From a virus (Duplodnaviria; Heunggongvirae; Uroviricota; Caudoviricetes): 4,660 nt of DNA. The stretch is taken from IMG/VR virus record IMGVR_UViG_2695420699_000005; one strand, given 5' to 3'. The notes under the pieces are model-generated. The model was not told where the DNA came from, did no database searches, and was given only the letters and a program-made list of their open reading frames with translations. Shown one piece after another: positions 670 through 4,476 of this stretch (position 1 is its first letter; the number at the start of each line of letters is the position of its first letter). The position numbers were made by a program, and so were the translations under genes.

Positions 670-1029
670 ATGCTCATAGATTTGGTTTTACCTTACCCGC
701 CGACGGTGAACACTTACTGGCGACGCCGTGGCAGCACATATTTTATCTCGGAGGAGGGAAAGCGTTATCGCCGGGCTGTGGCGCTTATTGTTCGCCAGCA
801 GCGGCTGAAATTAAGCCTGTCCGGAACGCTGGCGATAAAGGTGATTGCAGAGCCACCGGATAAGCGTCGTCGCGACCTGGACAACATTCTGAAAGCACCG
901 CTGGATGCGCTGACGCATGCGGGAGTGCTCATTGATGACGAGCAGTTTGATGAAATCAATATTGTACGTGGTCAGCCAGTATCTGGTGGACGGCTGGGTG
1001 TGAAGATTTACAAAATTGAGAGTGAGTGA
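670..1029 (+). CDS. rusA: Holliday junction resolvase RusA (crossover junction endodeoxyribonuclease)
   Basis: 119 aa ORF with an AAGAGG Shine-Dalgarno about 7 nt upstream of the ATG. Size and the acidic motif DKRRRDLDNILK match my recollection of E. coli RusA (about 120 aa, DRRRRDLDN catalytic region). Canonical position just upstream of Q. Confidence 0.85.
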   Translation: MLIDLVLPYPPTVNTYWRRRGSTYFISEEGKRYRRAVALIVRQQRLKLSLSGTLAIKVIAEPPDKRRRDLDNILKAPLDALTHAGVLIDDEQFDEINIVRGQPVSGGRLGVKIYKIESE

Positions 1030-1568
1030 GCGTAAATATGATATATCCGGAAATTACAGGCAAAAGCGGCGAACATTTACGCCTGAACACGCTGGAAGCA
1101 GTCTGGATCCAGGGGAAATTACGGATGTGGGGGCGGTGGTCGTATATCGGTGGGGGTAAATCCGGAAATATGTTTAACCGGTTACTGGTTTCGAAAAAGC
1201 TGACGAAAACAGCAGTTAATGAGGTTTTACGCAGAATGAAGAAATCCGGGCTGGAAAAACCGGAACTTGAGGCATTTTTTCGGGATATGACAAGAGGAAA
1301 GCAGAAGAGCTGGTTGTCACATTGTACAGACACAGAGGCGTTGATTATTGATCGCGTTATCAGTGAGGTGCTTGGGGAATATCCCGGGCTAATCAATATT
1401 CTCCGGCAAAGGTACGAAGGACGGGGAATGAGTAAGAGAAAAATGGCAGAATGTTTAAATCGTACTCACCCGGAATGGTGTTTCAGCACATGTGAGAAAC
1501 GTATTGCAGGTTGGTTAGCCGTGGCTGAACACATGCTTTATGTACCTATGCACGATTCATTTCGATAA
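1026..1568 (+). CDS. Q-like late-gene antitermination protein (alternative start ATG at 1038)
   Basis: 180 aa ORF whose GTG start at 1026 overlaps the rusA stop (GTGA), with an ATG alternative at 1038. The gene after rusA in lambdoid phages is Q, and it is followed here by a structured leader and terminator-like hairpins as expected for a Q-acting region. The sequence looks by eye like Q-family proteins but the family was not verified. Confidence 0.6.
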   Translation: MSVNMIYPEITGKSGEHLRLNTLEAVWIQGKLRMWGRWSYIGGGKSGNMFNRLLVSKKLTKTAVNEVLRRMKKSGLEKPELEAFFRDMTRGKQKSWLSHCTDTEALIIDRVISEVLGEYPGLINILRQRYEGRGMSKRKMAECLNRTHPEWCFSTCEKRIAGWLAVAEHMLYVPMHDSFR

Positions 1569-1664
1569 AAAAAGCTTGCTTTTTTACGCAGAAACAGCTT
1601 GAATTCCTGTAAGCTTCGCAAAGCTGTATCGCGAGGCGAAATGCAAGTTTTTTCGCACAAGGAA

Positions 1665-1686
1665 GCCACCGGAAGGTGGTTTTTTT
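1665..1686 (+). terminator. Candidate intrinsic terminator (possible tR'-like target of Q antitermination)
   Basis: 5-bp GC-rich stem CCACC/GGTGG (1666-1670 / 1675-1679, optionally extended by G1665) closing a GGAA tetraloop, followed directly by a run of seven T (1680-1686). Lies about 100 nt downstream of the Q stop codon. Confidence 0.4.
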
Positions 1687-1809
1687 GTGTCCGTAATATA
1701 CAGCAGCGCAATAAATTCGCTGGTGGTTATTAATACCGTTCTTTCAGGTTGCTGGCTTTTTCGACAAGAGTTATTGGTGTGTCACGTTAACCGGAAAAGG
1801 GAAAAAGAC

Positions 1810-2007
1810 ATGCTGAAACAGCAGGATATGACAGAAACCGCCAGAGTGGTGTTTAATGAATTAAGCGTTACCGACCCGGCGACAGTCGGGGAGATTGCGC
1901 AGAATACTTACCTTTCACGCGAACGCTGCCAGTTAATACTGACCCAGCTGGTTATGGCGGGTCTGGCAGACTATCAGTTTGGTTGTTACAGACGCCTTCA
2001 GTCCTGA
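1810..2007 (+). CDS. Small winged-helix / HTH DNA-binding protein (65 aa), hypothetical
   Basis: Internal ATG at 1810 of track ORF 1687..2007, with an AGGG Shine-Dalgarno 8 nt upstream. The stretch TVGEIAQNTYLSRERCQLILTQLVMAGLADY looks like a helix-turn-helix/wing segment. The part of the ORF upstream of 1810 is less protein-like and overlaps the leader hairpins. Confidence 0.5.
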   Translation: MLKQQDMTETARVVFNELSVTDPATVGEIAQNTYLSRERCQLILTQLVMAGLADYQFGCYRRLQS

Positions 2008-2020
2008 AGGCTTTTTTATT
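1994..2020 (+). terminator. Rho-independent terminator overlapping the stop codon of the small wHTH gene
   Basis: 7-bp stem GCCTTCA/TGAAGGC (1994-2000 / 2005-2011) with loop GTCC, followed by TTTTTTATTT (2012-2020). Confidence 0.55.
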
Positions 2021-2034
2021 TGTGGTAAATGGGC

Positions 2035-2065
2035 GGCTGGTGGGTGTAAGGGGCACCCACCAGCC
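2035..2065 (+). repeat. Perfect 12-bp inverted repeat GGCTGGTGGGTG-N7-CACCCACCAGCC; each arm contains a Chi octamer
   Basis: Read directly: 2035-2046 is the exact reverse complement of 2054-2065, with a 7-nt spacer TAAGGGG. GCTGGTGG lies at 2036-2043 and its complement CCACCAGC at 2057-2064. No U-tract follows, so it is not a typical terminator. Confidence 0.85.
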
Positions 2066-2157
2066 ATCTGCTCATGCGTTGGGTTCACAAGCAAACCTCA
2101 GGCCCACTGCTTTGCGCAAAAGCAGAATGAGCCTATCAGAGACAGGCTTAATGATCC

Positions 2158-3207
2158 ATGCTTAATACTGTAAAAATATCCAGTTGTGAGTTAATCAACG
2201 CCGACTGCCTGGAATTTATGCGGTCGTTACCCGAAAATTCTGTTGACCTGATAGTCACGGACCCGCCGTACTTCAAAGTGAAACCCGAGGGCTGGGATAA
2301 CCAGTGGGCGGGTGATGAAGATTACCTGAAGTGGCTGGACCAGTGTCTTGCGCAGTTCTGGCGGGTGCTGAAACCTGCCGGAAGTCTTTACCTGTTCTGT
2401 GGCCATCGTCTGGCATCTGACACCGAAATCATGATGCGTGAGCGGTTTAACGTGCTGAACCATATCATCTGGGCAAAGCCGTCCGGACGCTGGAACGGGT
2501 GCAACAAGGAAAGCCTGCGGGCGTATTTCCCCGCCACAGAGCGCATTCTGTTCGCAGAGCATTATCAGGGGCCGTATCGTCCGAAAGATGCCGGGTATGA
2601 GGCGAAGGGTAGGGCACTGAAACAGCATGTGATGGCCCCGCTGATTGCTTACTTTCGTGATGCGCGCGCTGTCCTGGGGATAACGGCAAAACAGATTGCA
2701 GATGCCACAGGAAAGAAAAACATGGTGTCGCACTGGTTCAGTGCCGGTCAGTGGCAGCTGCCGAACGAAAGCGATTATCTGAAATTACAGGCACTGTTTG
2801 CCCGGGTGGCAGAAGAGAAGCATCAGCGGGGTGAACTGGAAAAGCCCCACCACCAGCTGGTGGATACGTATGCCTCTCTGAACCGACAGTATGCGGAGCT
2901 GCAGAGTGAATATAAGCATCTGCGGCGGTATTTTGGTGTGACGGCGCAGGTGCCGTACACGGATGTGTGGACACATAAACCGGTGCAGTTCTATCCCGGG
3001 AAACATCCGTGCGAAAAACCGGCAGAAATGCTGCAGCAGATAATCAGCGCAAGCAGTCGTCCGGGTGACCTGGTTGCAGATTTTTTTATGGGCTCAGGTT
3101 CAACGGTAAAAGCGGCACTGGCGCTCGGGCGTCGTGCAATTGGCGTTGAGCTGGAGACTGAACGTTTTGAGCAGACAGTCAGGGAAGTTCAGGATTTAAT
3201 CGTTTGA
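2158..3207 (+). CDS. DNA methyltransferase, beta-class (motif IV DPPY N-terminal, motif I FxGSGS C-terminal), probably N6-adenine; orphan, with no adjacent restriction endonuclease
   Basis: 349 aa ORF with VDLIVTDPPYF near the N-terminus (2245-2274) and DFFMGSGSTVKAALALGRRAIGVE near the C-terminus. That motif order (IV then I) is the beta permutation of amino-MTases, and DPPY favours N6-adenine over N4-cytosine (often SPPY). The antisense ORFs inside it are low-complexity and treated as artefacts. Confidence 0.85.
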   Translation: MLNTVKISSCELINADCLEFMRSLPENSVDLIVTDPPYFKVKPEGWDNQWAGDEDYLKWLDQCLAQFWRVLKPAGSLYLFCGHRLASDTEIMMRERFNVLNHIIWAKPSGRWNGCNKESLRAYFPATERILFAEHYQGPYRPKDAGYEAKGRALKQHVMAPLIAYFRDARAVLGITAKQIADATGKKNMVSHWFSAGQWQLPNESDYLKLQALFARVAEEKHQRGELEKPHHQLVDTYASLNRQYAELQSEYKHLRRYFGVTAQVPYTDVWTHKPVQFYPGKHPCEKPAEMLQQIISASSRPGDLVADFFMGSGSTVKAALALGRRAIGVELETERFEQTVREVQDLIV

Positions 3208-3256: not shown

Positions 3257-3332
3257 GGCCCTTTAGCTCAGTGGTGAGAGCGAGCGACTCATAATCGCCA
3301 GGTCGCTGGTTCAAATCCAGCAAGGGCCACCA
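3257..3332 (+). tRNA. ileZ: tRNA-Ile2-like (anticodon CAU, ileX/ileZ type; formally could read as tRNA-Met)
   Basis: 76 nt with acceptor stem GGCCCTT/AAGGGCC, D-arm AGCTCAGTGGTGAGAGC, anticodon loop CTCATAA, T-loop TTCAAAT, discriminator A and encoded CCA. Near-identical by recollection to E. coli ileX (tRNA-Ile LAU). A phage tRNA-Ile of this type next to a tRNA-Arg is the arrangement known from Stx-type lambdoid phages. Confidence 0.9.
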
Positions 3333-3432: not shown

Positions 3433-3509
3433 GCGTTGTTAGCTCAGCCGGACAGAGCAATTGCCTTCTAAGCAATCGGTCACTGGTTCGACTCCACTAC
3501 AACGCGCCA
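3433..3509 (+). tRNA. argO: tRNA-Arg (anticodon UCU, reads AGA)
   Basis: 77 nt with acceptor GCGTTGT/ACAACGC, D-arm AGCTCAGCCGGACAGAGC, anticodon stem-loop ATTGC-CTTCTAA-GCAAT (anticodon TCT), T-loop TTCGACT, discriminator G and encoded CCA. One C-C mismatch in the T-stem. Resembles E. coli argU. Confidence 0.85.
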
Positions 3510-3678: not shown

Positions 3679-4111
3679 ATGTTTGGTATTTTTGGTAAAA
3701 AAAGCCCGCAGAGCGGCAACGGAAATTAAAAAGTTTGAAAAACGCGATCTGGCACAGGTGGTGATTAACGCCGCATACCTGGTGGCCTGTGCAGATGGTG
3801 AATGTGAGGCTTCCTAGAAAGCGAAGATCGAACAGGTACTGCGTAATCAGCCTGCGCTGTCCGCGTTTACGTCAGAAATTAATGCGATTAGCGCAACCAT
3901 TATCGGTCAGCTGGATACGAACTTTAAAATTGGTCGTCGTGCGGCGTTACGTGAGATCGAGGATGTGAAACACGATACGCGTGAAGCGGAAGATGTGCTG
4001 GATGTGGCGGTGGCCATTGCGGAGGCAGACGGCGAAATTGAGCCGGAAGAGCGCAAGGTGCTGGAAGAGATTGCCGGTGTTCTGGGTCTTCGTCTGGAGA
4101 ATCACCTGTGA
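3679..4111 (+). pseudogene. TerB-like (tellurite-resistance TerB family) gene disrupted by a frameshift in an A7 run and an in-frame amber codon
   Basis: ATG at 3679 with an AGGA Shine-Dalgarno 8 nt upstream reads MFGIFGKK then stops after 16 codons. Shifting +1 at the A7 run (3697-3703) continues as ARRAATEIKKFEKRDLAQVVINAAYLVACADGECEAS, hits TAG at 3815-3817, then continues KAKIEQVLRNQPALSAF...VAIAEADGEIEPEERKVLEEIAGVLGLRLENHL to TGA at 4109-4111. The composition is strongly protein-like and the ADGE...EE...L pattern resembles TerB-type domains, which I recall being annotated at this position in enterobacterial prophages. Confidence 0.5.
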
Positions 4112-4275: not shown

Positions 4276-4476
4276 TTTTTTTGTTTGCTGTTTATTAAAA
4301 ACACTTCTGCATGGTGAATCCCCCTGTGCGGAGGGGCAATCAGCGAGTAGGTATATGGGATAATCGCGGATTCAGGTGCTGGTACTGAATTCACCGGGAG
4401 GCACCCGGCACCATGCTTTGCCACAAAAGTGTTATTTCTGTTTTTCTCAAACTATCATCGTTATCCCTTTATTTCC

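Follow-up and report, generated by a model that had tools for sequence, protein, structure and literature searches.

What is a gene of only 65 codons doing directly upstream of an adenine DNA methyltransferase gene at the start of a prophage late region? The question is raised by the IMG/VR virus record IMGVR_UViG_2695420699_000005 (Caudoviricetes), of which a stretch of 4,660 nucleotides, referred to here as the window, was analyzed. The open reading frame (ORF) at 1810..2007 on the plus strand had originally been predicted to encode a small winged-helix (wH) regulator resembling PapI/FaeA, forming with the methylase, and with a terminator and a perfect inverted repeat between the two genes, a module perhaps analogous to C-protein control of restriction-modification systems. 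We find that the ORF is part of a conserved four-part cassette composed of a 5' element, the wH gene, a stop-codon hairpin/terminator followed by a leader of ~135 nt, and a methylase of the M.EcoGII family, and that this cassette lies directly behind the Q/pR'/tR' control region in lambdoid prophages. The conserved wH-methylase cassette was therefore upheld, while the PapI/FaeA kinship, the C-protein analogy and the repeat as an operator were not. The generic annotation of the ORF and the family of the enzyme were already known; for the dedicated wH-leader-methylase cassette and its covarying leader no description was found in Rfam or in the literature searched, which also yielded nothing on the small ORF or gp51 of phage N15.

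The ORF begins with ATG at 1810, ends with TGA at 2005-2007, and is a genuine gene under strong purifying selection, with a median ratio of nonsynonymous to synonymous substitution rates (dN/dS) of 0.077 and a maximum of 0.23 over 53 pairs from 13 loci of different genera. A Shine-Dalgarno-like AAGGG (1797..1801, plus strand) is positioned 8 nt before the ATG, and AAGG or AGG occurs at equal spacing in homologous wH loci; the ribosome-binding site, described previously as strong, is present and is better called decent. A 106-residue version starting from GTG 1687 is called by some pipelines. Homology between loci is observed only from ~1749, with 1-nt indels 5' of the ATG, and the GTG start was rejected because the sequence upstream of ~1749 is unconserved. 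The protein matches phrog_331 (E 2e-37), which is listed there as of unknown function, and is matched by 333 protein clusters, labeled at NCBI mostly as 'TrmB family transcriptional regulator'. A profile search of 1.84 billion representative proteins returned just 87 clusters, so the family is narrow. Its conservation peaks at the N-terminus (MLKQxDMTE) and in helix 3 (RCQLILTQLxMAGL), where the exposed residues R39, Q41, T45 and Q46 form the most conserved part of the family.

The AlphaFold2 model of the 65-residue protein (predicted local distance difference test score, pLDDT, 87.7) has the order H1-β-H2-H3-β-hairpin, a high-confidence prediction of the winged helix that had been proposed by eye, and both the H1-β1-H2-H3-β2-wing-β3 topology and the similarity to solved wH domains place it in that superfamily. 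The best Foldseek and profile matches include wH dimerization domains of S-adenosylmethionine (SAM)-dependent methyltransferases, and dozens of unrelated wH domains match as well as or better than those of PapI/FaeA type. The proposed likeness to PapI/FaeA is weak, as neither the window protein nor 21 family members matched Pfam FaeA (PF04703) at E up to 1, and the weak match to the PefI profile (E 0.045) is one among many to wH domains. TrmB (PF01978) is matched with 17.4 bits (E 0.0042), under its gathering score of 25.6 bits, and by 10 of the 21 members at E up to 1; the NCBI name reflects generic wH similarity and would be better replaced by a context-specific family. DprA_WH (PF17782) scores 15.1 bits with the window protein against a gathering score of 22.9 bits, although 14 of the 21 members match it (best E 1.3e-8) and two database clusters carry a precomputed PF17782 assignment. 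A PDB sequence search with the single protein gave a chance match only (YraP, E 0.6), the BFVD viral fold library yielded only generic wH proteins of unknown function, PADLOC returned only a marginal SWIM_XIII match (E 0.006), and a search of NCBIfam gave nothing useful.

M.EcoGII-type enzymes methylate essentially every accessible adenine and are in wide use for chromatin and RNA mapping. The gene that adjoins the ORF (2158..3207, plus strand) encodes a 349-residue beta-class adenine DNA methyltransferase (N6_N4_Mtase, E 3.6e-44), in agreement with the adenine type assigned to it originally, and belongs to the M.EcoGII/M.EcoGI family by its length, its beta-class motif order (DPPY at 35-38, FMGSG near 309-313) and its close identity to named homologues, including 95% over 348 residues to the enzyme of phage 1720a-02, itself described as a very similar homologue of M.EcoGII (PMC5778455). 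M.EcoGII and M.EcoGI are non-specific adenine methyltransferases of 349 residues from prophages of Escherichia coli O104:H4 (PMC5778455); they are silent in lysogens, and their constitutive expression is deleterious (PMC5778455; see also PMC6602927). Residence in a prophage and the silence reported for lysogens are further points of agreement with the window gene. M.EcoGII is non-specific and active alone, both in vitro and in vivo (PMC5778455). Judged from its sequence, the window copy would likewise methylate adenine independently of sequence context. The M.EcoGII paper covers the enzyme only and gives no account of a wH gene in front of it, of the terminator or of the leader (PMC5778455). 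No Shine-Dalgarno sequence is found within 5-10 nt of the methylase ATG; the closest purine-rich stretch is CAGG, replaced by AAGG in other lineages, which is ~14 nt upstream and inside a helix.

Linkage of the two genes is conserved well beyond E. coli. In a one-genome-per-species collection the methylase is 151-168 nt downstream of the wH gene in 14/14 genomes, which include Escherichia albertii, Salmonella, Kluyvera, Citrobacter, Pseudocitrobacter, Klebsiella, Buttiauxella, Scandinavium and Phytobacter, despite differing Q types and flanks. Among 75 evaluable IMG/VR loci with a near-identical wH gene, 65 have the methylase, 1 has an internally deleted copy and 9 lack it; in the other direction, an upstream wH-family ORF is present at 205 of the 236 methylase loci with enough upstream sequence (200 detected by the family hidden Markov model (HMM) and 5 by an HMM of N15 gp51 type). 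The expected co-occurrence is thus borne out, and the pair is retained where wH identity has fallen to ~50% (mEp460, cdtI, Stx2c phages and a Providencia phage). In phiP27, 1720a-02 and many Stx2a/2c/2d phages, the same ORF-methylase pair occupies the interval from Q to stx2. Gp51 of N15 and phiKO2 is a weak wH homologue in the equivalent position (hhalign E 2.6e-4; HMM E 1e-5 to 6e-3). In N15-like phage-plasmids gp51 has 75 residues (2006-2233 in locus L099, from N15, and 2003-2230 in L100, from phiKO2). An annotated late promoter and terminator sit between gp51 and the leader/methylase in N15 and phiKO2, so that the cassette straddles a putative late promoter; gp51 is upstream of this promoter, and the protein would therefore precede late transcription. 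Methylase relatives from Vibrio and Aeromonas (50-60% identity) lack both the wH gene and the leader.

The terminator that had been predicted between the genes is confirmed by a terminator scan and consists of a hairpin and T-run over the last wH codons and the stop codon (1994..2021, plus strand), with a stem of 7 pairs (1994-2011), 4 of them G-C, followed by TTTTTTATTT. Compensatory changes keep this stem in other genera (GCCTTCAG/CTGAAGGC vs GCCTCC/GGGGGC or GGAGGC), and its conservation covers cassettes of the Escherichia/Klebsiella/Salmonella type, the T-run being frequently degenerate. A terminator also precedes the leader at the matching place in N15 and phiKO2, and Providencia-type cassettes have none at the wH stop. 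Because the 5' arm is made of the last wH codons, a terminating ribosome would be expected to melt the hairpin.

The leader that follows is the firmest new element of the cassette and a candidate new family of cis-regulatory RNA. Individual folds and a hand-curated consensus give ~135 nt with 45 pairs in six helices. Domain 1 (2028..2075, plus strand) is composed of helices P0 (AAUGGGC/GCUCAU) and P1, the latter being the 12-bp inverted repeat that had been noticed originally and is indeed perfect, with arms of 12 nt at 2035-2046 and 2054-2065 that are 100% complementary around a 7-nt loop; its 5' arm holds a Chi octamer at 2036-2043. Together, P0 and P1 make one long hairpin. Domain 2 (2081..2160, plus strand) is formed by the nested helices P2-P5, and its predicted 3' strands, belonging to the covarying P2 and P3, span 12-30 nt before the methylase ATG. 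A conserved GATC directly 5' of this ATG is part of helix P2. In the window the minimum-free-energy fold pairs the ATG itself, and the leader is predicted to base-pair the methylase start region, where a usable Shine-Dalgarno sequence is absent. The folding energy of the window leader is -63.7 kcal/mol (z = -4.2). Mean pairwise identity is 84% for the leader, compared with 77% for the wH gene and 69-75% for the methylase, and because 1-nt indels recur, this intergenic conservation is not coding. Searching 2008-2157 on the plus strand against Rfam gave no match at E up to 10, and a minus-strand match to P26 (24.3 bits) is under the gathering score of 36.

Comparison of leaders argues for a conserved RNA fold. 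When 18 Providencia-type sequences were used to build a covariance model, it retrieved the leaders of E. coli, mEp460, phiKO2 and N15 type, and across 56 distinct leaders both sides have changed at 29/45 pairs, as illustrated by the P1 arm variants GGCUGGUGGGUG/CACCCACCAGCC, GACUGUAAAAGUG/CACUCUUACAGUC, GACAGUGAGGAUG/CAUCCCCACUGUC and CUGCAGCAUG/CAUGCUGCAG. Paired cells amount to 86.5%, vs 27-42% with slid partners, and 0/500 shuffles reach the observed values, figures that are somewhat inflated by an alignment fitted to the model. The excess of G-U over A-C cells (206 vs 106) and the constant end of the element at the ATG both point to the mRNA strand. The 12-bp repeat is accordingly one helix of a methylase-specific structured leader rather than a symmetric DNA operator. 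A degenerate pattern scan of IMG/VR gave 117 matches, and in 108/108 evaluable true leaders the element precedes an M.EcoGII-type start by 23 nt; the leader occurs solely before methylases of this type. The six pattern matches that lack a methylase are not matched by the covariance model and so do not count as leaders. An invariant long-range UGGGC/GCCCA pairing, proposed by RNAalifold from a plain MAFFT alignment of 44 diverse leaders, was rejected because one locus (L179) breaks it yet compensates the proximal P0 (AUAGGC/GCCUGU). Four loci (L172, L173, L181 and L182) have an intergenic region of only 85-100 nt, in which domain 1 with P0/P1 and the Chi-like arm is kept and most of domain 2 is lost.

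The cassette is placed within the Q-dependent late operon. The gene for the late antiterminator Q, of DUF1133 type, is at 1026..1568 on the plus strand (Pfam DUF1133, E 6e-111; Phage_antitermQ, E 2e-8; PHROG 753, 'anti-termination protein Q-like') and is followed by a tR'-like intrinsic terminator (1664..1690, plus strand; GCCACC GGAA GGTGG + T7) that was read from the sequence, a terminator scan reporting this hairpin on the minus strand only. In other loci a different terminator occupies the tR' position directly before the cassette. The type of Q in front of the cassette also varies: it is DUF1133-type in the window, and phiP27, mEp460 and the Providencia phage have others. The 5' element of the cassette (1749..1785, plus strand; TTGCTG-N12-AGAGTTAYNTGTRTG) is kept in all cassette types whatever is upstream, and a sigma-70 promoter scan recognized none within it. 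This element begins ~20-25 nt past whichever terminator precedes the cassette. The position directly behind the Q gene and a tR'-type terminator is shared with lambda late control (Q, pR', tR'), and both cassette genes should for this reason require Q-modified RNA polymerase; the differences from lambda are that the cassette is independent of Q type and adds a terminator and a leader of its own.

Because the enzyme is harmful to the host and silent in lysogens, we infer that it is guarded by several layers, and the conserved cassette, the leader that buries the start and the place behind Q/tR' suggest what these layers may be. The first would be Q-dependent read-through of tR'. The second would be the terminator past the wH gene, which translation of the final wH codons could melt as well, and in the third the leader would block initiation of methylase translation. 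The preferred reading of the wH protein, to which we give a probability of roughly 40%, is that it is an accessory regulator of methylase expression, acting like Mu Com on the mom mRNA while being an unrelated protein. It would act on the cassette's own control region, candidate targets being the conserved 5' element and the leader, the latter either as RNA or as DNA, and would set the timing and amount of methylase. This role is suggested by the coding status and fold of the protein, its linkage to the methylase, the covariation of the leader, the toxicity and silence of the enzyme, and the precedent of toxic adenine-modifying enzymes that are activated by a small protein encoded upstream (PMC3299994, PMC6483171).

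That precedent is found in Mu-like prophages, where the genes for Hin1523, Hia5 and Nme1821, all non-specific adenine methyltransferases, are preceded by com-like genes (PMC3299994, PMC6483171). The likeness to com-mom and its relatives consists of a very small gene (39-62 residues there, 65 here) directly 5' of a host-harmful, near-context-free adenine modifier, of late expression with the enzyme silent in lysogens, and of an enzyme start that is locked in mRNA structure, by prediction in the present case. Other features differ. Com is a basic Cys4 zinc finger, whereas the window protein, a winged helix, is acidic, has only two cysteines (C40 and C59) and lacks a zinc motif; the Mu genes overlap, whereas here they are ~150 nt apart with a terminator between them; the leader here, with its ~135 nt and six helices, is far larger; and the enzyme is Mom or a Dam-like alpha-class protein there and a beta-class M.EcoGII-family protein here. 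Binding of the leader RNA with activation of translation, the trait of Com-type activators, would be a candidate function of the window protein.

Several observations weigh against an accessory regulator acting on the cassette. The wH family is acidic, with a median isoelectric point (pI) of 5.1 and a pI <7 in 89% of 90 distinct members, which is unusual for a stand-alone nucleic-acid binder. P1 has changed on both arms in three loci (L115, L120 and L165) that keep the same H3 sequence, so the P1 stem sequence is not the specificity determinant of the wH protein. Recombination shuffles wH and methylase types, as seen from their respective identities to the window of 94%/81% in SfV and 48%/87% in Stx2c phages. 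Finally, ~10% of the loci with leader and methylase (L104, L112, L114 and others) are without the wH gene and have an unchanged leader, which indicates that the protein is not needed in cis, and the inflation of the pairing figures noted above counts in the same direction.

A more specific proposal, which we consider fairly unlikely as it stands, is that the cassette is a riboregulatory unit in which a new class of leader, either protein-binding or ligand-sensing (e.g. for SAM or S-adenosylhomocysteine), locks the start of the M.EcoGII-family gene and the wH protein is its dedicated RNA-binding or N6-methyladenine (6mA)-sensing partner. If true, it would be a fold-independent reinvention of Mu Com and a rare case of a stand-alone bacterial winged helix controlling translation, and binding of the leader by the wH protein would amount to a second, independently evolved answer to the problem that Mu meets with Com. 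The cassette in any event defines the natural control region of an M.EcoGII-type methylase, consisting of a second terminator, a covarying 135-nt leader and a dedicated small wH gene, in an arrangement that spans lambdoid Stx-type prophages, Providencia phages and N15-like phage-plasmids. How these methylases are silenced and switched on was previously undescribed, and the cassette makes both directly testable.

A similarly doubtful alternative is that the wH protein exerts no control of expression and instead binds the methylase or its product, restraining or targeting the enzyme, reading heavily 6mA-modified DNA, or shielding against 6mA-dependent type IV restriction. The acidity of the protein would fit such a role, as would the hydrophobic V48-M49-A50 that closes H3, the presence of wH dimerization domains of SAM-dependent methyltransferases among the top Foldseek and profile matches, and the pattern of a hypervariable H1-to-H2 region and wing around a fixed H3. 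The wH-methylase link also outlasts the loss of most of domain 2 in the four shortened loci, and wH domains are reported to be able to sense 6mA (PMC11037411; bioRxiv 10.1101/2023.06.07.544091). M.EcoGII, however, is active and non-specific alone (PMC5778455), the free shuffling of wH and methylase types speaks against a co-adapted interface, and the top structural matches of the wH protein do not include wH domains of DpnI type.

It is also unlikely that the wH gene has a function unrelated to the methylase, for example in directing host or phage transcription or as an accessory gene of the late operon, and that the adjacency merely reflects a block passed on and recombined whole at the front of this operon. 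In favor of this reading, the winged helix is a generic fold, the methylase and leader are also found without the wH gene, and the ORF is intact where the methylase has been lost, both in the 9 IMG/VR loci and in the methylase-less phages phiSTEC1575-Stx2k and PhiR5_1. These methylase-less loci, however, are recent deletions or replacements with the junction inside the intergenic leader; the family is narrow and tied to the methylase context; and the link extends across Escherichia, Salmonella, Klebsiella, Citrobacter, Kluyvera, Buttiauxella, Phytobacter and Providencia-type phages, and weakly to N15-like ones, despite varied Q types and flanks. In eight methylase-less loci (L004, L019, L047, L082, L083, L086, L089 and L098) the junction falls exactly past the Chi octamer of the leader, after Chi/CTGGTGG and 43 nt past the wH stop (compare 2036-2046 of the window), and such exact junctions suggest recombination at the leader Chi site. 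There the sequence continues into a DUF3927-like 3' end just before STnc100.

Control in the style of C proteins, with the wH protein binding the repeat at 2035-2065 as a symmetric double-stranded DNA operator to switch methylase transcription, is very unlikely. The repeat in the window is a perfect palindrome between the genes, and a small protein of the helix-turn-helix (HTH) class encoded directly upstream of its proposed target is the feature shared with C proteins. These, however, are dimers of Xre-type HTH proteins; they bind C-box palindromes located 5' of their own gene and control when the restriction enzyme is expressed, whereas the window protein is a winged helix, the repeat follows the ORF and has the behavior of an RNA helix, and no restriction endonuclease gene is present in the window or the annotated homologous loci. 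The arms of other lineages are asymmetric in sequence and rely on G-U pairs and bulges, in keeping with the excess of G-U over A-C cells; the repeat is embedded in a larger covarying fold reaching the start codon; changes in P1 are unmatched by changes in H3; and a promoter scan predicted none between the two genes. A PapI/FaeA-like epigenetic switch of the phase-variation type, in which the wH protein would act with Lrp and a methylation-sensitive GATC, is extremely improbable, since the conserved GATC before the methylase ATG that could favor it is accounted for by helix P2, PF04703 is unmatched and similarity to PapI, FaeA or PefI is no greater than to many wH families, and the setting is a lytic late operon whose neighbors are the Q, RusA, DUF968, methylase and tRNA genes of a lambdoid prophage, with no fimbrial genes, paired arrays of Lrp sites or Dam-switch context.

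As a whole, the window covers the beginning of the late region in an E. coli-type lambdoid prophage, for which the closest E. coli matches have 98% identity. A DUF968/HNH gene (64-657) and a RusA gene (670-1029) precede Q. Downstream of the methylase, ARAGORN identifies two tRNAs on the plus strand (3257-3332 and 3433-3509). The first has a CAT anticodon and is assigned as Met by ARAGORN, its RefSeq homologue being a tRNA-Ile of ileZ type; the second is tRNA-Arg(UCU), and the pair corresponds to the usual tRNAs of Stx-type phages between Q and the toxin/lysis genes. They are followed on the plus strand by a TerB-family pseudogene (3679-4111) with an in-frame TAG near 3815, whose RefSeq homologue is marked as a pseudogene with an internal stop, and by the small RNA STnc100 (4280-4452), 3' of DUF3927, a full-length Rfam match of 101.5 bits (E 4e-22). 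Seven Chi octamers (GCTGGTGG) occur in the 4.66 kb, compared with 0.15 expected from shuffles, at 239-246, 291-298, 2057-2064 and 2850-2857 on the minus strand and at 1719-1726, 2036-2043 and 2856-2863 on the plus strand. Four of them form two back-to-back pairs, one on the P1 arms of the leader and the other, CCACCAGCTGGTGG, within the methylase gene.
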